Virus record (IMG/VR): IMGVR_UViG_3300033232_000045
Location: 1 to 64,000 of that record
DNA from: a virus
Length of the DNA: 64,000 nucleotides
Reading direction: 5' to 3' (one strand)
Part shown: one piece after another, positions 5,180 to 59,387 of the stretch
Layout: the number at the start of each line of letters is the position of its first letter
How positions within the stretch are numbered: the stretch's first letter is position 1
Notes under the pieces: generated by a model
Database searches by the model: none
Seen by the model: the letters and a program-made list of their open reading frames with translations, nothing else
What the model was told of the DNA's origin: nothing
Program-made: the position numbers and the translations under genes

Positions 5180-5842
5180 ATGAAGAAGTTTGAAACAATT
5201 TATTTAAGCCCGCTCGCGCTAAGTGCGAACAAGTTCAATCCGAACGTGATGTCCGCAGAGAATGAGAACCGTCTGCGCGAGAGCATTCGCCGAAATGGAT
5301 TTTTCAAGCCCGCGCTTGTGCGGGAGCTGCCCAATGGAACGCTCGAAATCATAGGTGGAGAGCATAGGGTATCTGCAGCCATTGACCTTGGAATCACGGA
5401 GGTTCCGGTTGTCAATCTTGGCAGCATTAGCGACGAAAAGGCAAAAGAGCTTTGCGTCCTAGACAACGGTCGGTACGGTGACGACGATGCCCTGCGACTC
5501 GCGGAACTGCTGAGCGAGATGGGCTCCGTCGATGAAATTGCCTCCTTCATGCCTTACTCCGATGCTGATTTCGCTGCGATCTTCGCTTCGACCAGTATAG
5601 AGCTCGACAACCTCGACATCCCCGATAACGAGGAACTGCCTCCCATGCTGCCGACCGAGAAGCCGATCCAGACCCATCAGGTCATGCGCTTTAAAGTCCC
5701 GGTCGGCGATGTCGAGCACATCACCAGCGTCATCGAGCGCGTGATGCGGACACAAAAGTTCACCGATGAAGATTCCCTCTCCAACGCAGGCAATGCGCTG
5801 GTCCACGTATTCAAAAAAGGAGCAACCGAAGATGGCGTATAA
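5180..5842 (+). CDS. ParB/Srx N-terminal-domain (ParB-like nuclease domain) protein
   Basis: NPN..., EIIGGEHRVSAAIDLG, VLDNGRY motifs typical of the ParB N-terminal domain. Confidence 0.75.
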   Translation: MKKFETIYLSPLALSANKFNPNVMSAENENRLRESIRRNGFFKPALVRELPNGTLEIIGGEHRVSAAIDLGITEVPVVNLGSISDEKAKELCVLDNGRYGDDDALRLAELLSEMGSVDEIASFMPYSDADFAAIFASTSIELDNLDIPDNEELPPMLPTEKPIQTHQVMRFKVPVGDVEHITSVIERVMRTQKFTDEDSLSNAGNALVHVFKKGATEDGV

Positions 5843-5966: not shown

Positions 5967-6169
5967 GCAGCTTCATCGTCGCAGCACGCCACAAGGACGG
6001 CACCAAAAACCTCTATCAGGTGTCCGAAGCTGAGAACCACACCGAGGCATACGAACACGTTCGCGCATCCACAAGGGCGCGCGCAGTCCTCGTCTGCATC
6101 GAGGGCGGCAAGCCCCTCAAGGAAGCCCCCATCCCCGAAGATCAAGATAAGCAGGAGCAAACCGCGTGA
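5963..6169 (+). CDS. hypothetical protein, 68 aa
   Basis: Track ORF; ATGA-type overlap with both neighbours. Confidence 0.5.
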   Translation: MSSFIVAARHKDGTKNLYQVSEAENHTEAYEHVRASTRARAVLVCIEGGKPLKEAPIPEDQDKQEQTA

Positions 6170-6819
6170 GCGCCATGAACATTAAAATCTGGAACATCGA
6201 TGAGCTGATTCCGTACGAGCTCAACGCCAAGATTCACACCCCCGAGCAGGTCGCCCGTATCGCCAAGTCCATCAATGATTTCGGCTGGAACCAGCCGATC
6301 GTGGTGGATAAGTCAGGGGTGATTATCGCCGGTCACGGTCGGCGTCTCGCCGCAATCAAGTTGGGTATGGCAAAGGTGCCGGTCTGGGTGCGCGATGACC
6401 TCGACGATGATCAGGCGCGGGCGCTGCGCCTTGCTGACAACCGCGTTGCCGAGGGCGATATCGACACTGAAATATTTCGTCGCGAGCTGGAGACGCTGGA
6501 ATACGACCTGTCGGGAATCTTCGACGAGAAGGAGCTGGACTTTGGCACCCTCGACCTGGGCGAAATGGACACGGGCTCATTCATTGAGGATGTGGACGAG
6601 CAGGTCAGGCAGCAAAAGGCGGCAACCGAATCCCATATCCAGGAGACAGCGGTGCGCCAGGTTTCGCTGGCAAAAGCGATGGGCTTCAAGTCGATTTCCG
6701 GCGCCGACGAGATTCACGTCGCACAGTTCATGGCGGAAATCATGAACGACTTCGACCCCGACCCTGCGATCGCCTTTGTGAAGTTCGTCCAAGCATATAA
6801 CAATGGAGATGCAAAGTGA
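6166..6819 (+). CDS. ParB/Srx N-terminal-domain protein (second paralog)
   Basis: IIAGHGRRLAAIKLG and LRLADN motifs; no methylase or HTH domain follows. Confidence 0.75.
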   Translation: MSAMNIKIWNIDELIPYELNAKIHTPEQVARIAKSINDFGWNQPIVVDKSGVIIAGHGRRLAAIKLGMAKVPVWVRDDLDDDQARALRLADNRVAEGDIDTEIFRRELETLEYDLSGIFDEKELDFGTLDLGEMDTGSFIEDVDEQVRQQKAATESHIQETAVRQVSLAKAMGFKSISGADEIHVAQFMAEIMNDFDPDPAIAFVKFVQAYNNGDAK

Positions 6820-51473: not shown

Positions 51474-51505
51474 GAAGTAAGCCTTTGATTTACAAGGGCT
51501 TCTTC
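51474..51505. terminator. hairpin between convergent genes (putative bidirectional terminator)
   Basis: gaagtaagcctttg-attta-caagggcttcttc, imperfect stem. Confidence 0.45.
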
Positions 51506-51753
51506 GTCATGCTCTGGAACATCATGGCGACCATGTCGTTGACCTCGCCGACGACATTCCCCCAAATCAGCAGCTCGTCCTCAAACTCGACTACGCTGCG
51601 ATGCGGCTCAAGACCCTTCTTTTCCTCTAAGGCAATCTCGAACTGATTGCGGTCGTCGCGGTATTTATTCCAGCGCCGGTCGGCCTCCTCATCGCTCAGG
51701 TTGAGAAAAATCTGATGAGTGTCGCCAACGGTGTAGATGATTGCCCGGTTCAT
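51490..51753 (-). CDS. hypothetical protein, 87 aa
   Basis: Track ORF, last gene of the minus-strand block. Confidence 0.5.
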   Translation of the reverse strand: MNRAIIYTVGDTHQIFLNLSDEEADRRWNKYRDDRNQFEIALEEKKGLEPHRSVVEFEDELLIWGNVVGEVNDMVAMMFQSMTKKPL

Positions 51754-52448
51754 GCCACCTCCTGCAAGGTCTGTTTCTTCAAGTATTCGCGTAGTCTGGA
51801 TACGGTGCCAGGCAGCAGCCTCAACTTAGAGGCGTCAATGCTCTTGACCAAGTCAGTATGTCCGTGCGCAACCCAATCGGTCATGCAGATGACCGCGTCC
51901 GATGTCCTGGTGAGACTTTTCAATGTGTGCGGGCTTTCGTCCTTCCAGAAGCGAAGGTCGAATGTAGAACCGAACTCCGATGCGATCTGATTCTGCTGTG
52001 CCGGTAGTAGACCTACGATTACGAGCTTGGGAGGGCGCTTTCTGGGCGTCGTAGAGGTCGCGGGTAAGGTTGGGGTAGCAACAGTCGCACTGGCACGCTG
52101 TAGGGCGATTCTGAGGGCTTCCGAGAACACTTCTGCGAACGCCGCTCCGATCGCTTCTGCGAGCTCTTCGATTTTGCTGTCTGGAGACGGTTTTGGCAGC
52201 GGCGGCGGAAGCTCTGCCGCCCTCTTCTCCCCATCCAGTCGTGCTGACAGGACTTCACGAGTCAACTTCGAGAGCTGCGCAACTGCGGAAGAATAGAGAA
52301 CTCGCCGGCGATGTGTCGGCAGAATGGACTGCGCATCGTGCAGCAGACTCTTCATGGTCAAGCCTGGGCGCTCTTGAACCATCTTTGCCGCTTGCTCCGC
52401 AACCGTGCGCTCCTCCTCCTTCGTCCAGAAAATCTTTGTCTTAGCCAT
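51750..52448 (-). CDS. hypothetical protein with DUF2325-like C-terminal domain (putative)
   Basis: 232 aa; C-terminal KLVIVGLLP...DAVICMTDWVAHGHTDLVK resembles the DUF2325 pattern (from memory). Confidence 0.5.
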   Translation of the reverse strand: MAKTKIFWTKEEERTVAEQAAKMVQERPGLTMKSLLHDAQSILPTHRRRVLYSSAVAQLSKLTREVLSARLDGEKRAAELPPPLPKPSPDSKIEELAEAIGAAFAEVFSEALRIALQRASATVATPTLPATSTTPRKRPPKLVIVGLLPAQQNQIASEFGSTFDLRFWKDESPHTLKSLTRTSDAVICMTDWVAHGHTDLVKSIDASKLRLLPGTVSRLREYLKKQTLQEVA

Positions 52449-52653
52449 TCTTCTTCGCCCCGAAACTATTCAAAAAACGTTGACGCCTGACATTCTGCTC
52501 GATGTCAGTACGCACGGCGCCTAGCCCTTCTTCGAGTAGGTACGACAGAACTTCCTCATTACTGGCATCGACGCCGAGCTCACTGAAGTTGCTCCTGACC
52601 TGCTCAATCTGGCTTTTGATTTCGTCCGGCACGGTACACATGATGAAAGCCAT
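52441..52653 (-). CDS. hypothetical protein, 70 aa
   Basis: ORF 52441-52830 trimmed to ATG 52653 (GGGGG RBS); the longer ORF would read through the iteron array. Confidence 0.5.
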   Translation of the reverse strand: MAFIMCTVPDEIKSQIEQVRSNFSELGVDASNEEVLSYLLEEGLGAVRTDIEQNVRRQRFLNSFGAKKNG

Positions 52654-52670
52654 ATTACCCCCTGAGAATG

Positions 52671-52868
52671 TGCCGCATCCATGCAGCACATACAAAACCT
52701 GAATCTTGTTTGATATATAGAATCTAGTTAGTGCCGCACCCATGCAGCATGAAACGCCCAATGTGCTGCACCCACGCGGCATATTGACCGCATCCATGCA
52801 GCACATTGCCGCTGGATATGCTGCACCCATGCAGCATGTGGATAATTATGTGCCGCACCCATGCAGCA
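52671..52868 (+). repeat. array of six 18-bp iterons TGCYGCA-YCCA-TGCAGCA, same orientation
   Basis: Copies start at 52671, 52732, 52764, 52786, 52819 and 52851 (spacings 61, 32, 22, 33, 32 bp); AT-rich tract 52690-52730 between copies 1 and 2. Confidence 0.85.
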
Positions 52869-52871
52869 CAT

Positions 52872-53564
52872 TTACTTCTTTTCCTGCGTGCCTTTGAGGT
52901 TCAACCCAGGAATCATCTTCTGCATCTTGGCGAGCGCGGCGTCCTTCGCGTTGAGCAGCCGGCGCTTCACTTCCTCTTCGTCATAAGCGCCATTCATCTG
53001 CACGTTTTCGGCTGCGACGATCTGCGTTTCGATCTGGGTGCCGTAGTTGATATTGACCTTGACCTCGATCTTCTCAATGTGGATGACCTGCTTGCCGTCC
53101 GTCCTGCCCTGCTCCGCGTACTGCCTGACCTGGCGCTGAACCTCTGCCACCGCCATCGGCACATAATCCCATCGCACCGCCTCTACCATTTCCCCCTCGC
53201 CATTCGTGATGGGAAAGCGCTCCTTGATCTTGTAAACGTTGTTGCGTCCGCGCTTGCCGATGATTTCGACGTAACCCATGTCCACCAGCGTCTTAACGGA
53301 ACGCACCACGGTATCGCGGCTTTTGCCGACAGTCTTGGCGATCGTCTCCATGCTCGGGAAGCTCTGCCCGGTGTTGAGCGAGGCGAATGACTTGATGCAG
53401 CACAGGACGAAGAACGGCGTCTCACCCATGTCCTTTGCATCGCCAGATGAGAACATGGCGTTGAACAGATGAACGAATGTAGTGTCGGCGCGGCGGTCAA
53501 GTAGCTCACCCTGCGCGGGCAGCATTGTTGGAGGCGTCTTCATACTTCCGCAGTCGGGCTGCAA
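52872..53564 (-). CDS. winged-helix DNA-binding protein, putative replication initiator
   Basis: wHTH METIAKTVGKSRDTVVRSVKTLVDMGYVEI; the iteron array starts 4 bp beyond its stop codon; start codon uncertain. Confidence 0.5.
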   Translation of the reverse strand: MQPDCGSMKTPPTMLPAQGELLDRRADTTFVHLFNAMFSSGDAKDMGETPFFVLCCIKSFASLNTGQSFPSMETIAKTVGKSRDTVVRSVKTLVDMGYVEIIGKRGRNNVYKIKERFPITNGEGEMVEAVRWDYVPMAVAEVQRQVRQYAEQGRTDGKQVIHIEKIEVKVNINYGTQIETQIVAAENVQMNGAYDEEEVKRRLLNAKDAALAKMQKMIPGLNLKGTQEKK

Positions 53565-53847
53565 TCTCCTTTTCTAAACCTTCGATGATGATCGAGTGCA
53601 TCGAGGCGTTAGGCTCATTTTCGCTCAAAAACTTGAGCTTTTGATAGAGCGACTCCTTGAGACGCAAGCTGTACTGGTACAGTACGCGGTCATTCGCGCT
53701 CGACCAGGGCCATGCGCCCTGCCCTGCCCCGCTTGGGGTCGGAAGATTTGCCTGCTCTACCCAATCTGCCGCACGGTGAAGACGATCCTTCGCCTCCTCG
53801 GTGGTGATTCCTGCGATCGCAGGACGTTTGCGCAATCCACTGCTCAT
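53506..53847 (-). CDS. ribbon-helix-helix protein, ParG-like partition/centromere-binding candidate
   Basis: 113 aa; C-terminal YSLRLKESLYQKLKFLSENEPNASMHSIIIEGLEKEI RHH pattern; directly downstream of parA. Confidence 0.5.
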   Translation of the reverse strand: MSSGLRKRPAIAGITTEEAKDRLHRAADWVEQANLPTPSGAGQGAWPWSSANDRVLYQYSLRLKESLYQKLKFLSENEPNASMHSIIIEGLEKEIAARLRKYEDASNNAARAG

Positions 53848-54491
53848 CCGAATATCTCCCGGTAAAGGTGCCTGATTTCGACGATCGCCTTCTCGGTGTC
53901 ACCCTCTTTTAGCTCGGTCACTGCCCGCCCATCGCGAGCCGCCTTCCTGAATGGAATGCGGTCGCAAATCACGGCTTTCGAAACCCTCATGCTCTCATAG
54001 GTGCCGATCGCATCAGCCGCCTCCTCCGCCTCGCGTACCTGCGGATTGGGGTTCGCCATGTTGATCACGACCAGCGGAGCGAGCCTGTCGTTGCCCCTGG
54101 CGCGCGCCTCGACCACCAGCCGATCCATCACATCGAACGTCCAGGTGTCGAACTGGCTGGGTTTGGTCGGGATGATCATGTGGTCGCAGAACAGCATGGC
54201 ATTCCGCATTTCGCTCGAATCCCTGCCGCCGGCGTCGACGATCACGGTGTCGAACTTGTTTGCCATCTGAACGATGTCGAAGCCCGCAGTCGGCCCGAGC
54301 TTGGAGACGCAAGTCAGGCTGGGCGAAACCCCCTCGTCCACCCGAACCTGCGCCCACAGGGTCGCGCTGCCCTGCTTGTCTGAATCGACCAACAGTACGT
54401 CCTTGCCCTTTGATGCGCGCATTGCTGCCAGGTTCACGGCGAGCGTTGTCTTACCCGTGCCGCCCTTCTCGGTGCCCACTAGGATGATCAT
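53844..54491 (-). CDS. parA: ParA-family partition ATPase
   Basis: Deviant Walker A GTEKGGTGKTT; start moved to ATG 54491 (GGGGA RBS) because the upstream ORF extension runs into the repeat field. Confidence 0.85.
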   Translation of the reverse strand: MIILVGTEKGGTGKTTLAVNLAAMRASKGKDVLLVDSDKQGSATLWAQVRVDEGVSPSLTCVSKLGPTAGFDIVQMANKFDTVIVDAGGRDSSEMRNAMLFCDHMIIPTKPSQFDTWTFDVMDRLVVEARARGNDRLAPLVVINMANPNPQVREAEEAADAIGTYESMRVSKAVICDRIPFRKAARDGRAVTELKEGDTEKAIVEIRHLYREIFG

Positions 54492-54636
54492 TTCATTTCC
54501 CCATATTGAATTGAATGGCATTGCACCACTCGATTTGATTCTATTCCATGTCGAGTCGAATTGCATCACTCAATTCAATTTGATGCCATTCGGTCCAATT
54601 CGACCCTACCCAATGCGATCCGATGTTGAATGACAC

Positions 54637-54717
54637 GGAATTGGGTGGGGTTGAATCGCACCATAGCATATCGAGTTGCATGATTCAAAGCCATGCAATT
54701 CAACCCCACCCAATTCC
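54637..54717. repeat. perfect 20-bp inverted repeat separated by 41 bp, upstream of parA
   Basis: GGAATTGGGTGGGGTTGAAT (54637-54656) and ATTCAACCCCACCCAATTCC (54698-54717). Confidence 0.85.
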
Positions 54718-54852
54718 ATCTCATCCAACATCGAATTGAGCCGCATGGCATCACATGGAGTTGCATGACATCGCATGAGATAGAGCCGCATGATGTGGCA
54801 TCGCATGATATGGAATGATATCAAGTTAAGTTGTTGTTTTGTAAGGGAGCGG

Positions 54853-54882
54853 CCAAAAGAAAGGGCGCCGATTGGCGCCCTT
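54853..54882 (-). terminator. intrinsic terminator of the repressor-like gene
   Basis: aagggcgcc-gatt-ggcgccctt with a T-run (minus strand) at 54853-54860. Confidence 0.7.
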
Positions 54883-54900
54883 GTTGGGGTTTGATTTCGA

Positions 54901-55425
54901 TCAGGAGTCGAGCTTGCGAACGATCGGCTTTCCATCCTTTTGCTTTTTGCGCATGTCGTCCCGCGCATGTACGAGGGAGTCACGCTCGATTTTCGACACG
55001 TCCGCCGCGATAGTCTTGAGAGCTTGTCGATGCTCGTCGAGCACGATCGTAGGATCGGTTTCGAGAGTCGCCTCGCGCCACAGCTTCAAAAGCTGGCGCT
55101 CATTCTCTGACACTGCTGCGCCCATGACAGACTCAAGTATATCGTGAAGCTCAGGCATGTACTCACTCAGTGCCAGCCTGGTCAGATGCACCGGATCGAC
55201 ATGAATTGCCTTCGCAAGCGCTGGCGCTTTGCCGATGGGGAGTTTTGTACCGCCACGCTTGATCATCACAAGAATGTTCGGTTTCTCGTAGCCTATCGCA
55301 TTGGCAACATCCTTCTGGGTAACGCCAGGCGGAAGATGCGCGAGTTGCGCGCCAATGTAATCAGCAACGGTAGTGACGGACTTGCGGGTTTTCTTTTCTT
55401 TAACGACCTTTGCAGCTTGTTCCAT
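54901..55425 (-). CDS. XRE-family HTH regulator (prophage repressor candidate)
   Basis: ORF trimmed to ATG 55425 with AGGAGG RBS; HTH VTQKDVANAIGYEKPNILVMIKRG. Confidence 0.7.
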   Translation of the reverse strand: MEQAAKVVKEKKTRKSVTTVADYIGAQLAHLPPGVTQKDVANAIGYEKPNILVMIKRGGTKLPIGKAPALAKAIHVDPVHLTRLALSEYMPELHDILESVMGAAVSENERQLLKLWREATLETDPTIVLDEHRQALKTIAADVSKIERDSLVHARDDMRKKQKDGKPIVRKLDS

Positions 55426-55484
55426 AAGACCTCCTGTACTTTTGAATGTACCTGCTCTCTCTCTGCTTCTCATGGTTACGCCGC

Positions 55485-55502
55485 TAAGTCACGACCACCA
55501 TA
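55485..55502 (+). promoter_or_regulatory. motif half-site copy in the divergent regulatory region
   Basis: TAAGTCACGACCACCATA (left half perfect, right half absent). Confidence 0.4.
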
Positions 55503-55520
55503 TTTACAGTATAGTATAAG

Positions 55521-55538
55521 AAAGTCACTGTTGACTAG
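55521..55538 (+). promoter_or_regulatory. TAAGTCA-N4-TGAYTTA motif copy in the divergent regulatory region
   Basis: AAAGTCACTGTTGACTAG. Confidence 0.55.
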
Positions 55539-55794
55539 CGCATGTTGGAACCTGTGACGAATCCGAAGGAATAGCTGCAGTGTGGAAAATTCGACGAAGG
55601 AGGCGAAAAGTTGAGATGTGGAACTTTCAACAATAGAGTTGAAAAGCGAACGCTAAGTGGCTGTATGCAAAAGAGAATTTATCGCTATAATGACGCACAA
55701 GACGACGCGATTGACCAAATGGGTGCGGAGCAGGCGCCCTGATCAATCGGCTGATTCAGCTTGATTTTAAGTTACGGGCGGAAGCGAGAGCTAA

Positions 55795-56181: not shown

Positions 56182-58119
56182 ATGAACGAACGTGTCTACA
56201 TCCTGCGCGAAGCTGTCACACGCCTGACCAAGCTGCTTGCTGGCAAGAAGGTCGAGGTGACACAGCGTGGCACTCGCGCTTACGTTGAGTACACGCTGGC
56301 GGGCCAGCCCAAGCGCGTGAATTTGCCGTACATCCCCGACAACGCCAGCGAGGATTTGATCAACGCGATTCAGGGCTTTCTTGACCACGAGGTCGGGCAC
56401 ATCCTATTCAGCGACTTTGAGCTGCTGGCGAAGGGCATCGAGGAGGGCGTCGGGAACCTGCACAACGTCCTTGAGGACACGTTTATCGAGCGGCAGATGA
56501 TGAAGAAGTTTCGCGGCTCAGGCATGAACCTGACTTCCACCAGCGGCTTCTACCTGAACCACTTCGCCAAGCCGGAACTTGCGAAGGCGACTGCGGAGGG
56601 CGATGTCAAGAGAATGATCGGCATTCTCATGGTTCCGGCGATCCGCGCATGGTCGGGACAGGAGATTCACGCCGAGTTCATGCGTGACAAGCTGGGGATT
56701 CTGGAGCCGGTAGTCAAGCGTCTCGGATCGCTGATAGGTGACATTGCAAAATGCAACAGCACTGCCGACACCCTTGCGCTGGCGCACAAGATCAACAGGG
56801 CGCTCGAAGAGTCACCTGCCCCCGAATCACCCAGCAAGGAAGGCAAGGAAAAGCCCGAAAAGCCCGAGAAAAAGGATGAGATCGAGGAGCCCGATGAGAA
56901 GCCGGACGACGAGCAGAGCGAAGACAAAGGTGACGGGGAGAGCTCAGACGGCTCCGGCGCAAAAAATGAAGACGAAGACGAAGGTGAAGATAAGGATGAG
57001 GGCGAGGGCGACGAGGGCGACGAGGGCGAAGAGCCGCCTGGCGAGAGAGGGGCGGGCGCCGACGATAGTCCCGAGAACGCCTCCGAAGAGGAATCGGAGG
57101 AGTCCGGCGTCAGCCTGACAGGCATCGAAGGGATGCTCAGTGACGATTTCGACAGTGCTGTGGCGGAAGTCCTGTCTAAAGTTTCGGTGAAGGCAGCGGA
57201 GTCGTCTGACTACCTCGTTTACACGAAGGATTTCGATAAGATCGAGCCGCTGCCGACGAGGGGGTTCTCGGATTTTCTCCTGTCGCGTCTGGAGGACAAG
57301 ACGCTACACATGGCGGGGCCGCTGCAGAAAGACCTTGAGCGTGCCATCGCGGCGCGCTCAATGAAAGTATGGCAGGGTGGGCTGCGCAGGGGCAGAATCA
57401 ACGGGGCTAGCCTTGCCCGTCTTGCGACGGGCGACGATCGTATCTTCAGGCGACGCCAGGAGCACAGGGGCAAGGATGCGGCGGTCGAGCTGGTGGTGGA
57501 TTGCTCGGGCTCAATGGACGGGGTGCCGATCGAGCTTGCGACCCAGGCTGCGTACGCGCTGTCTACCGTGCTGGATCGCATGGGGATCGCCAACGAGGTG
57601 ATCGGGTTCACCACGCTTTCCATCTATGGACGCGGAGCAGCAGGGCCGAGCGACGAAGAGGTGCAGGAAGACCCGCTGAGCGCAACCGGCAAGCAGTATT
57701 CGCGGTTTGAGCCGATCTATATGCCGGTGATTAAGGGCTTCGACGAGCGCATGAATTCCACCGTCAAGCAGCGCTTTGCTGTCCTACCGGCGGCGGGGTG
57801 CTTCCGTAATAACATTGATGGCGAGTCGATTGAAATTGCCGCGATGCGTTTGATGCAGCGCCGAGAGAAGGGCAAGATAATGATCGTGCTGTCTGACGGG
57901 GAACCCGCAGCGTGTGGGGAGTCCGCCGAGCAGTACAGTCACCTCCTGCGAACGACGAAGAAAATCGAGGCAGCAGGCATCAACCTGATCGGGCTTGGCA
58001 TCGACAGCGCGGCGGTCACGCGGTTCTACAGTAAGAGCATCGTGATCCGCAAGATAGAGGAGCTGCCAGGTGAGGTGATGCGCCAGTTGAAAGGCATGCT
58101 GCTGGGCAGTATGCAATAA
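56182..58119 (+). CDS. cobT: CobT-like von Willebrand factor A protein with long acidic tract
   Basis: vWA MIDAS VVDCSGSM; about 100 aa Asp/Glu-rich insert; pairing with the downstream CobS-like AAA+ gene. Confidence 0.8.
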   Translation: MNERVYILREAVTRLTKLLAGKKVEVTQRGTRAYVEYTLAGQPKRVNLPYIPDNASEDLINAIQGFLDHEVGHILFSDFELLAKGIEEGVGNLHNVLEDTFIERQMMKKFRGSGMNLTSTSGFYLNHFAKPELAKATAEGDVKRMIGILMVPAIRAWSGQEIHAEFMRDKLGILEPVVKRLGSLIGDIAKCNSTADTLALAHKINRALEESPAPESPSKEGKEKPEKPEKKDEIEEPDEKPDDEQSEDKGDGESSDGSGAKNEDEDEGEDKDEGEGDEGDEGEEPPGERGAGADDSPENASEEESEESGVSLTGIEGMLSDDFDSAVAEVLSKVSVKAAESSDYLVYTKDFDKIEPLPTRGFSDFLLSRLEDKTLHMAGPLQKDLERAIAARSMKVWQGGLRRGRINGASLARLATGDDRIFRRRQEHRGKDAAVELVVDCSGSMDGVPIELATQAAYALSTVLDRMGIANEVIGFTTLSIYGRGAAGPSDEEVQEDPLSATGKQYSRFEPIYMPVIKGFDERMNSTVKQRFAVLPAAGCFRNNIDGESIEIAAMRLMQRREKGKIMIVLSDGEPAACGESAEQYSHLLRTTKKIEAAGINLIGLGIDSAAVTRFYSKSIVIRKIEELPGEVMRQLKGMLLGSMQ

Positions 58120-58134
58120 GTCAGCGGTGATTGT
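58117..58134 (+). promoter_or_regulatory. TAAGTCA-N4-TGAYTTA motif copy
   Basis: TAAGTCAGCGGTGATTGT; its TAA is the cobT-like stop. Confidence 0.6.
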
Positions 58135-58162
58135 TGCAGTTCCGAGACGCGAACTGTAAGAT
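58134..58162 (+). promoter_or_regulatory. sigma70-like promoter TTGCAG-N17-TAAGAT
   Basis: Abuts the motif copy; 32 nt upstream of the cobS-like ATG. Confidence 0.45.
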
Positions 58163-58193
58163 TACAAATATTGGGAAATCGAGAGGAGAGAAA

Positions 58194-59387
58194 ATGAGTG
58201 AAACGACTGCTGCTGTCGCGTCCAAAACCGAGTCTGATGACAAGATCGCCTGTGAAATTTGCGGAGCTCGGGTGCATAGCATTCAAATTCACCTGCGCGA
58301 TGGCGTACACGGCGAGACTACCATGCAGGACTACACGAACGCTTACCCGGGCGCCCCGGTGATGTCCGACCTGGCAAAGCGCAAGCTGGAGGAGGGGCGC
58401 TCCGCCAGGAGGATCGAGATGGCTACCGCTGCGGTGATTCCGATGCGCAGCACTGACGGCATCGAGAAGGTTGCAATGCACGAGCTGTTCGAGCTCGGCT
58501 CCACCAAGTCCACGCTGTCCGCTTCGGGCAAGCCCATCCCGATCAGCAAGATTCACGGTGGCGACCCCGACTTGGTTCCAGAAATCGACAATGGCTATGT
58601 TTACGACCTTGACTCGCTGAAAAACGTTCTACTCGGGCTGGAAGACAACATTCCGACCTACATTTGGGGCCACATGGGCACGGGCAAGTCCACCCTGGTC
58701 GAGCAGATCGCGGCTCGCACGGGTCGCCCGATGATGCGCATCCAGCACACAATCAACACCGAAGAGAGTCACATCGTCGGCCAGTGGACAGTGAAGGACG
58801 GCCACACGGTCTTCGAGCCAGGTCCGCTGGCGCTGGCGATGCGCAACGGTTGGCTCTACATGGCTGACGAATACGACTTCGCGCTGCCGAACGTCACCTC
58901 GGTCTATCAGGCGGTGCTGGAGGGTAAGTCATTGGTGATTAAGGAGGCAGACGCAGCGAACCGCGTAATTAAGCCTCACCCGCAGTTCCGCTTCGTCGCG
59001 ACGGGTAACACCAACGGCTCCGGTGACGAGACGGGCCTGTATCAGGGCACGAACATTCAGAACGCGGCGAACTATGACCGCTTCGGCGTCGTGATCCAGA
59101 TGACCTACATGCCCAAGCGCCAAGAGATGCAAATTCTGATCAACCAGTCGGGACTAATGAAGGAGGACGCTGAGCGTTTTGTCTCTTTCGCTTCTCTGGT
59201 GCGCGAGGCATTCGACGGGGGCAAGCTGTCCTCGACGATTTCGCCGCGTACCCTGATCACGGCTTCGCGCCTGGGTATCAAGAAGGGGTCGTGGGTGGCC
59301 GGACTGAACCTGTCGTTTGCCAATAAGTTGTCGAAGATCGACCGCGAGGTGGTGGACGGCCTGATGCAACGTGTTTTTGGGGAGTAA
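58194..59387 (+). CDS. cobS: CobS-like AAA+ (MoxR-type) ATPase
   Basis: ORF trimmed to ATG 58194 (GAGAGGAGAG RBS); N-terminal CEICGARVHSIQIHL; Walker A GHMGTGKST; Walker B LYMADEYD. Confidence 0.85.
   Translation: MSETTAAVASKTESDDKIACEICGARVHSIQIHLRDGVHGETTMQDYTNAYPGAPVMSDLAKRKLEEGRSARRIEMATAAVIPMRSTDGIEKVAMHELFELGSTKSTLSASGKPIPISKIHGGDPDLVPEIDNGYVYDLDSLKNVLLGLEDNIPTYIWGHMGTGKSTLVEQIAARTGRPMMRIQHTINTEESHIVGQWTVKDGHTVFEPGPLALAMRNGWLYMADEYDFALPNVTSVYQAVLEGKSLVIKEADAANRVIKPHPQFRFVATGNTNGSGDETGLYQGTNIQNAANYDRFGVVIQMTYMPKRQEMQILINQSGLMKEDAERFVSFASLVREAFDGGKLSSTISPRTLITASRLGIKKGSWVAGLNLSFANKLSKIDREVVDGLMQRVFGE

Follow-up and report, generated by a model that had tools for sequence, protein, structure and literature searches.

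A phased array of palindromic repeats 3' of a winged helix-turn-helix gene is the probable replication origin of an SSU5-like phage-plasmid

Six copies of a short palindromic repeat lie between two minus-strand genes in the IMG/VR virus record IMGVR_UViG_3300033232_000045, directly 3' of a gene encoding a winged helix-turn-helix (wHTH) protein, and the question that this locus raises is whether the repeats direct replication, partition or transcription. The stretch analysed, hereafter the window, comprises positions 1 to 64,000 of that record, or 64 of the 98.7 kb of the contig. We propose that the array is most probably the replication origin (oriV) of an SSU5-like phage-plasmid, situated just 3' of its wHTH initiator gene; its general kind is known, its initiator family is uncharacterised, and the element that carries it is a phage-plasmid.

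An 18-bp pattern, TGCYGCAYCCATGCAGCA, is found on the plus strand without mismatch at 52671, 52732, 52819 and 52851 and with two mismatches each at 52764 and 52786; its chance expectation in the window is 0.31, and the observed count was reached by none of 100 shuffles. A repeat search lengthens the unit to 24 bp, ATGTGCCGCAYCCATGCAGCACAT, with starts at 52668, 52729, 52761, 52783, 52816 and 52848 and start-to-start steps of 61, 32, 22, 33 and 32 bp, giving an array of six units in one orientation that spans 52668-52871. Read in gene sense, the array starts one base past the wHTH stop codon (52872-52874) and ends 15 nt short of the ATG (52653) of the next minus-strand gene, orf70. The six same-orientation copies, their positions and spacings and the filling of the gap between the two genes are thus as an earlier reading of the DNA (the original prediction) had described them. 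That reading also took the units to be pseudo-palindromes, and over the full 24 bp each is an imperfect inverted repeat with 10-bp arms, ATGTGCYGCA and TGCRGCACAT, about a 4-bp centre that is itself asymmetric (CCCA on the plus strand, TGGG in gene sense). Numbered in gene sense, units 1 to 5 follow one another at 32, 33, 22 and 32 bp, or approximately three, three, two and three helical turns, so that all of these sites would face the same side of the helix. On the plus strand of the window the 10-bp core GCAYCCAYGC is found six times, always within the array, and extragenic palindromes of the REP type were rejected because the motif is found nowhere else in the window; a CRISPR-like array was also rejected, as the spacers are far too short and at conserved positions. 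Scans of the whole window against Rfam and for tRNAs were empty, so that a structured-RNA reading is without support.

Standards for the prediction of oriVs call for phased initiator sites, an adjacent meltable AT-rich tract and DnaA boxes (PMC3832669), and the locus offers a counterpart of each. Where at least three phased repeat copies are looked for, the array has six, with a spacing that is kept in relatives. The 40-bp AT-rich block that was originally placed between the first two copies in plus-strand order (52690-52730; units 6 and 5 in gene sense) has a GC content of 25%, where the window has 57.7%, and ranks with the lowest 0.16% of 40-mers on this measure. Its nearest-neighbour stability is -43.2 kcal/mol against -59.0 +/- 4.0 kcal/mol for the window, about four standard deviations less stable and among the least stable 0.1% of 40-mers in the window, so that by both composition and predicted stability it has the character of an adjoining DNA-unwinding element (DUE). 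By-eye inspection of the block revealed no consensus site (WATCAANNNNTTR) for integration host factor (IHF). Host-factor sites are represented by a DnaA box (52837-52845) inside the array, which is the only perfect one in the 64 kb.

The same arrangement is present in the closest relatives of the locus. A collection of 5.8 billion proteins contains five close relatives of the wHTH protein, all metagenomic and 86-59% identical to it, and in all four whose contigs extend past the gene (L001-L004) four to six units follow the wHTH stop codon. The rhythm of 32, 33, 22 and 32 bp is common to these four, including the 22-bp step between units 3 and 4, with one extra 33-bp step in L003. In L002 the downstream genes are different and lie on the opposite strand, and units 1-5, the DnaA box and the AT-rich block are kept, with only unit 6 lost; this unit is likewise absent from L003, where orf70 is present without a proximal unit, and is present in L001 and in the more distant L010. 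The DnaA box occupies the equivalent position in L001 and L002 despite changes in the flanking spacer bases. The sequence of the AT-rich block is kept in L001, L002, L003 and L010 and partly in L012, and the motif at its junction with unit 5 (...GCAC-TAAC(A/T)AGA) is kept in L001-L003, L010 and L012. When the window is compared with L001-L003, 74% of the columns in the unit cores are invariant vs 35% of those in the spacers (Fisher p = 5e-6), and we therefore conclude that the units are selected as sequence and the spacers only as length.

In more distant lineages the bases of the units change and the layout persists. From 86% down to ~27% identity, relatives with readable 3' DNA have three to six palindromic units after the gene, sharing a CATGG(G/A)TG-type centre and accompanied by an AT-rich tract and usually by DnaA boxes, which adjoin the arrays of L010, L012, L016, L141 and L193. 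L010/L011 (P0007, 49% identity) is a 108-kb phage contig with synteny as in the window, in which AGTCCGCATGGGTGCGGAGTG units, an AT block starting ACTAAACAAGA and another unit before the next gene follow the wHTH gene, the stop codon of which is overlapped by a perfect DnaA box. In the plasmid-like contigs L012-L015 (P0008, 36% identity) the gene has KfrA/BrnTA genes on one side and a NikA/relaxase pair on the other, ParA being absent; 3' of it are two ATCACCCATGAT units, two ATCATGGGTGAT units in inverted orientation, an AT block starting CTAACAAGA, and DnaA boxes TTATACACA and TTATCCACA. L006 (31% identity) has GTCATCCATGAC units and a 17.5%-GC tract. The complete 104-kb Polaromonas plasmid pA29BJ2 (~27-28% identity) carries a ParA / small-protein / HTH module with an AT tract and three CCCTTA-N4-TAAGGG units 3' of the gene, together with three consensus DnaA boxes (TTATCCACA, TTATTCACA and TGTGGATAA), two of which are perfect; the 104 kb of this plasmid contain no further annotated replication initiator.

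A scan of IMG/VR by DNA alone, for two GCATGGGTGC cores 8-30 bp apart, finds members of the wHTH family at ~35% identity in L141, L153 and L193. All three have an array of three GCCGCATGGGTGCGG units, spaced at 32-33 bp, that starts 85-100 bp past the end of the gene. An AT tract comes before the units, and among them lie DnaA boxes that are perfect or consensus in L141 and L193 and imperfect in L153; ParA is encoded upstream in L153 and L193, with none within 7 kb in L141. Two other IMG/VR matches near generic HTH_36 genes (L174 and L180) were rejected, as the motif lies in coding sequence and there is no array, and the two-core pattern gave only unrelated chance matches among the matches listed for genome contigs. 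The elements in which array and wHTH gene co-occur thus include phage-plasmids, plasmid-like contigs and one complete plasmid of 104 kb. The original prediction of an iteron-type origin beside its Rep gene is supported by this comparison, in which array, AT tract and DnaA boxes track the wHTH gene across 86% to ~27% identity. Its description as a classical iteron/Rep layout has to be revised, in that the units are dyad-symmetric, resembling those of lambda O, and the protein is of the HTH_36 class and not Rep_3; the perfect DnaA box within the array is an addition to that prediction, which made no mention of it.

Features of the putative origin and the adjoining genes (positions in the window; units numbered in gene sense)
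Feature	Coordinates	Strand	Remarks
Unit 1	52848-52871	-	minus strand reads ATGTGCTGCATGGGTGCGGCACAT; abuts wHTH stop; position kept in L001 and L002
Unit 2	52816-52839	-	found by repeat search and pattern match
Unit 3	52783-52806	-	variant, 2 mismatches in the 18-bp core
Unit 4	52761-52784	-	variant, 2 mismatches; 22 bp from unit 3, the 24-bp forms overlapping by 2 bp
Unit 5	52729-52752	-	directly abuts the AT-rich block
Unit 6	52668-52691	-	beyond the AT-rich block; 15 nt short of the orf70 ATG
Perfect DnaA box	52837-52845	-	TTATCCACA on minus, TGTGGATAA on plus; between the cores of units 1 and 2
AT-rich block, putative DUE	52690-52730		25% GC; contains conserved CTAACWAGA...AACAAGA
wHTH (HTH_36) gene, proposed replication initiator	52872-53543	-	~220 aa; alternative starts 53525 and 53564
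Small protein, 113 aa, presumed ParA partner	53506-53847	-	ParG/RHH-like C-terminus; syntenic in L001-L004, L010, L016, L017 and L153
ParA partition ATPase, small, 215 aa	53844-54491	-	PHROG_164, NF041546, Pfam AAA_31 and CbiA
Pentamer field	54492-54830		~60 pentamers upstream of parA; lag-5 autocorrelation
HTH_3 regulator	55473-54901	-	followed by a terminator-like hairpin
orf70	52441-52653	-	directly downstream of the array; no family matches
orf232	51750-52448	-	weak DUF2325 and RHH_5 matches only

The arms of the units differ by lineage (CCGCA/TGCGG, CCTTA/TAAGG, ATCA/TGAT and GTCA/TGAC) and in every lineage are mutually complementary around a conserved CA-TGGG-TG centre. Because the arms vary yet stay complementary, the dyad symmetry itself is maintained. 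The predicted recognition helix of the protein reads S-x-D-T-V-x-R where the arms are CCGCA, S-x-x-Q-V-x-R-C-L where they are (A/G)TCA, and T-D-D-T-V-R-L where they are CCTTA; with three classes only, this co-variation is suggestive and stops short of proof. It would fit a symmetric wHTH dimer at each unit, with half-sites one helical turn apart.

What is known of the protein family is in keeping with an initiator. Pfam analysis of the wHTH protein gives a match to HTH_36 (PF13730) at residues 51-99 that is above the gathering score (47.1 bits, cut-off 25) and assigns it to this class, and a match to DnaD_N that is at threshold (27.1 bits, cut-off 27). In PHROG it matches, at E 1.9e-8 to 1e-5, families annotated as 'replication initiation O-like', 'replication initiation protein' and 'DnaD-like helicase loader', the first of these over the wHTH region at E about 1e-8; a further match is to phrog_28562 (E 1.2e-19). 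Among small plasmids, HTH_36 proteins form an accepted class of Rep, encoded close to iteron-type oriVs (PMC3832669, PMC6209633), and no other initiator-like protein was found among the open reading frames (ORFs) of the window that were scanned. The gene was originally placed at 52872-53564, of which the stop is correct and the start is more likely the ATG at 53543 (as in the relative P0002) or 53525 (the database gene call P0001) than the TTG at 53564. A segment in the C-terminal part of the protein (IHIEKIEVNINYGTQI, residues ~148-165) is strongly conserved down to ~30% identity, lies outside any Pfam annotation and is modelled with low confidence; a role as a surface for oligomerisation or for recruiting the helicase is conceivable.

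We envisage that dimers of the initiator would bind the dyad-symmetric units, the arms of which are 10 bp apart centre to centre and so placed to lie on one helix face, and that the five units at 32/33/22/32 bp would assemble a phased nucleoprotein complex, with host DnaA bound at the box between units 1 and 2. Such a complex would melt the neighbouring 40-bp AT-rich element, bracketed by units 5 and 6, and the replicative helicase would be loaded there; genes for a DnaB-like helicase and a primase are present in the element itself. The repeats may further be expected to set copy number and incompatibility in the manner of iterons. We infer the binding of the wHTH protein, its dimer stoichiometry, the melting and the helicase loading, and likewise the use of the origin in the plasmid state, in lytic growth or in both.

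Among known systems, the architecture of the array is closest to that of lambda-type origins. Lambdoid origins (ori-lambda and the Stx-phage ori) have four to six iterons of ~19 bp that are imperfect inverted repeats bound by O dimers, with an AT-rich tract unwound on one side (PMC7466680), and here six 24-bp imperfect inverted repeats are accompanied by a 40-bp AT tract that abuts the array of five at unit 5. The locus differs from lambda in that ori-lambda is inside the O gene whereas the array is 3' of the stop codon, in that there is a DnaA box within the array, and in that the protein has no match to Phage_rep_O, the N-terminal domain of lambda O. The gene moreover belongs to a parA operon and not to a pR-driven O-P operon, and no P-like loader was identified.

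Iteron plasmids of the Rep_3 type include pPS10, pSC101, F (RepE), R6K (pi), P1 (RepA/oriR) and the IncFIB replicons of the SSU5 group. The iteron plasmids combine a rep gene, phased repeats, one or more DnaA boxes and an AT-rich DUE (PMC3832669), and the array shows this same grammar of repeats, DnaA box and AT tract; its role would also be similar, as the low-copy replicon of a plasmid prophage coupled to a partition system. The wHTH protein, unlike the Rep_3 initiators, has no Rep_3 profile match and a single confident wHTH with a conserved C-terminal IHIEKIEVNINY region in place of WH1-WH2, and the units are palindromic and not asymmetric direct repeats, which suggests dimers and not monomers as the origin-binding form. 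The Reps of a third set of plasmids (Paracoccus pAES7, pMARC3, pMOS2 and pAES1; pYEE7/8; E. coli pKL1) share the domain class PF13730, and these plasmids have iteron-like and inverted repeats beside the gene (PMC3832669, PMC6209633). Their oriVs have two or three direct repeats, situated in pAES7 and pKL1 at or upstream of the rep start, whereas here the array is downstream of the gene, the units are palindromic with a CATGGGTG centre, and there is usually a parA/small-protein pair upstream. A tblastn search with the wHTH protein of the window did not detect the characterised HTH_36 plasmid Reps (Paracoccus etc.), and any relationship is therefore limited to the HTH domain. In the repABC operons of alphaproteobacterial plasmids a partition ATPase, a centromere-binding protein and an initiator are encoded in one transcription unit with the origin at its 3' end. 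The likeness to these is in gene order only, as the RepC domain scores below its cut-off, the ParA is of the small 215-aa type (TIGR03453 RepA, 21.8 vs 348), and the origin is outside the initiator gene.

Several observations weigh against the proposal that the array is an oriV. The wHTH protein has no Pfam match at E<=0.1 to Rep_3 (PF01051) or to Phage_rep_O, and RepC (RP-C, PF03428) reaches 13.9 bits vs a cut-off of 24.4. Its structural model has a mean predicted local distance difference test score (pLDDT) of 55.7, is confident for the wHTH core alone and is poor outside residues 30-110, and Foldseek matches with this model are to generic wHTH regulators only (E>=2e-3), so that structure yields no family assignment; matches of the family profile to the PDB are generic and weak, and include the centromere-binding proteins TubR and AspA. 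The wHTH gene is within the parA operon in most lineages, and the protein may have a partition-related role. The DnaA box is absent from the arrays of L003 and L004, and the Acinetobacter relative L017 has no clear array. The GC skew of the window follows gene orientation and is uninformative, and with 64 of 98.7 kb examined a further replicon elsewhere is possible. As to the Rep function of the wHTH family, we infer it from domain class, context and elimination.

The strongest competing explanation is that the array is a centromere, either a second parS for ParA and the small RHH-like protein, which the original prediction had offered as its alternative, or the site of a wHTH partition adaptor such as AspA in the AspA-ParB-ParA system of pNOB8 or TubR in type III systems. 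Short palindromes repeated in phase are typical of centromeres too, the family profile gives weak sequence matches to the solved TubR and AspA, and the window, like L001-L004, L010, L016, L017, L153 and L193, has the wHTH gene in one operon with parA and the gene for the small protein. Three lineages (L012-L015, L006 and L141), however, have gene and array without ParA or the small RHH-like protein. A centromere would need neither the DnaA boxes nor the AT-rich tract that accompany the units in several independent lineages, and this reading would leave pA29BJ2 without an annotated replication initiator. A type Ib centromere, furthermore, would depend on the parA/RHH pair and lie upstream of parA, whereas the array is 3' of the third gene, and in the window and its phage relatives the canonical centromere/operator position is filled by a field of pentamers. 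We therefore do not favour the centromere alternative and consider it unlikely.

The pentamer field (340 bp) has a lag-5 autocorrelation of 0.46 against a background of 0.249+/-0.027, the highest in the window, and is composed of consecutive TxxCA and xxTGG blocks in both orientations, located between the terminator of the HTH_3 regulator and the parA start. A 5-bp periodicity upstream of parA is seen in L001-L004 and L010 and not in L016 or L017. The field is likely to be a type-Ib centromere/operator, and is a better candidate for this role than the 24-bp array. Its 5-bp repeat unit is unusually short.

A role in transcription alone is quite improbable. The array would in this case be an operator or roadblock at which the wHTH protein or another regulator controls read-through into orf70 and orf232, with no part in replication. 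The closeness of unit 6 to the orf70 start, matched by a comparably close unit in L001 and L010, would fit such a site, as would the occurrence of HTH_36 in transcription regulators too (PMC3832669) and the fact that the structure matches are repressors. The retention of units 1-5 and the AT block in L002, despite different downstream genes on the opposite strand, argues against it, as do the presence of orf70 in L003 without a proximal unit and the unrelated downstream genes of the plasmid-type relatives L016, L141 and L193. A scan for sigma-70-like promoters predicted none within the array, and five or six phased sites with DnaA boxes and a conserved AT tract exceed the needs of an operator. 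It is very improbable, finally, that the array serves lytic growth only, with the phage DnaB and primase, and that the plasmid state uses a replicon in the remaining 35 kb: the element does encode a DnaB-like helicase, primase and ligase (and a relative a Pol III alpha subunit), the pairing of dyad-symmetric iterons with an AT tract is a lambda-type lytic design (PMC7466680) and 64 of 98.7 kb were examined, but the module is the only recognisable replicon of the non-phage plasmid pA29BJ2, occurs also in relaxase-bearing plasmid-like contigs, shares an operon with partition genes, whose function belongs to the plasmid state, and has DnaA boxes pointing to the host-initiator cooperation typical of plasmid oriVs.

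If the array is an oriV, its distribution bears on how such elements are classified. On balance we favour the view that the wHTH protein and the array define an uncharacterised, widespread replicon family of at least 105 clusters (50% identity; E<=1e-30), characterised by a ~200-aa single-wHTH initiator that would act as a dimer on CA-TGGG-TG palindromic iterons together with host DnaA, usually as the product of an operon that recalls repABC in its order of parA, small-protein gene and rep and has the origin directly 3' of rep. The module would have passed between true plasmids and phage-plasmids of the SSU5 type, taking the place of the usual IncFIB replicon in the latter. At E<=1e-10 the family has 408 cluster representatives, and NCBIfam has no model for it. 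In annotated collections, tblastn finds close relatives (about two-thirds or more of the wHTH protein aligned) in two plasmids and one phage only, all labelled 'helix-turn-helix domain-containing protein', and in the complete Polaromonas plasmid and the Acinetobacter phage-plasmid the module is labelled merely as an HTH protein. Searches with blastn of the region 51500-55600 gave no match in phages and only short parA matches in plasmids; exact-protein look-ups of the window ORFs with long start codons found none, and a related-locus search of viral and genome contigs (single protein; close alignment) also found none. Many plasmids and phage-plasmids escape replicon typing because their initiators are unrecognised (PMC7969092), and the module would extend typing to a further replicon class, one whose origin signature can be predicted. 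Its combination of lambda-like palindromic iterons with plasmid-like DnaA boxes would offer a compact system for studying the opening of a hybrid origin, and concepts of replication initiation are left unchanged.

The Acinetobacter relative L017 is A. baumannii pRBH2-3, which matches Acinetobacter phage vB_IME_Ab2712 and carries the ParA / small-protein / HTH module. Two dissimilar GATAC-type palindromes only are found 3' of its gene, with a perfect DnaA box ~1.2 kb downstream, and the origin layout may therefore differ in this element.

The window is of a siphovirus-type genome, with terminase, portal, tape-measure and J-like tail proteins (structural genes at 10833-37442); the DnaB-like helicase and primase are encoded at 44.5-47 kb, a ligase is also encoded, and CobT/CobS-like genes follow the replicon at 56182-59387. 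Its portal shares 53-60% identity with the portals of SSU5, Cyrano, Klebsiella and Acinetobacter phage-plasmids and with that of Rhizobium phage RHEph10, and a related portal is found in 965 PLSDB plasmids, which places the element with the SSU5-like phage-plasmids. Phage-plasmids need a plasmid replicon, and the relatives of SSU5 are mostly of the IncFIB replicon type (PMC7969092); since the replicon described here differs from this usual type, we conclude that the module has been exchanged, and it illustrates the swapping of replication/partition modules in the SSU5 supercommunity.

The order on the minus strand is HTH_3 regulator, pentamer field, parA, 113-aa gene, wHTH gene, array, orf70 and orf232, and the wHTH gene is the last in a parA / small RHH-like gene / rep operon. 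The parA gene product matches PHROG_164 (E=1.5e-42) and NF041546 ParA_partition (148 bits over the full model); its start had been put at 54569, and 54491 is more likely, giving the 215 aa seen in all relatives. The 113-aa protein has no Pfam, PHROG or NCBIfam match, and the RHH label that it was originally given comes from a single weak profile match of its C-terminus, in the PDB, to the RHH repressor Mnt (E=0.11). Downstream of the array, orf70 and orf232 are syntenic in L001 and L003 and replaced in L002. Far from the parA operon, two neighbouring genes with a ParB N-terminal domain ('ParB-like partition/nuclease'; 5180-5842 and 6166-6819) lie beside ABC-ATPase-like genes, upstream of the terminase.

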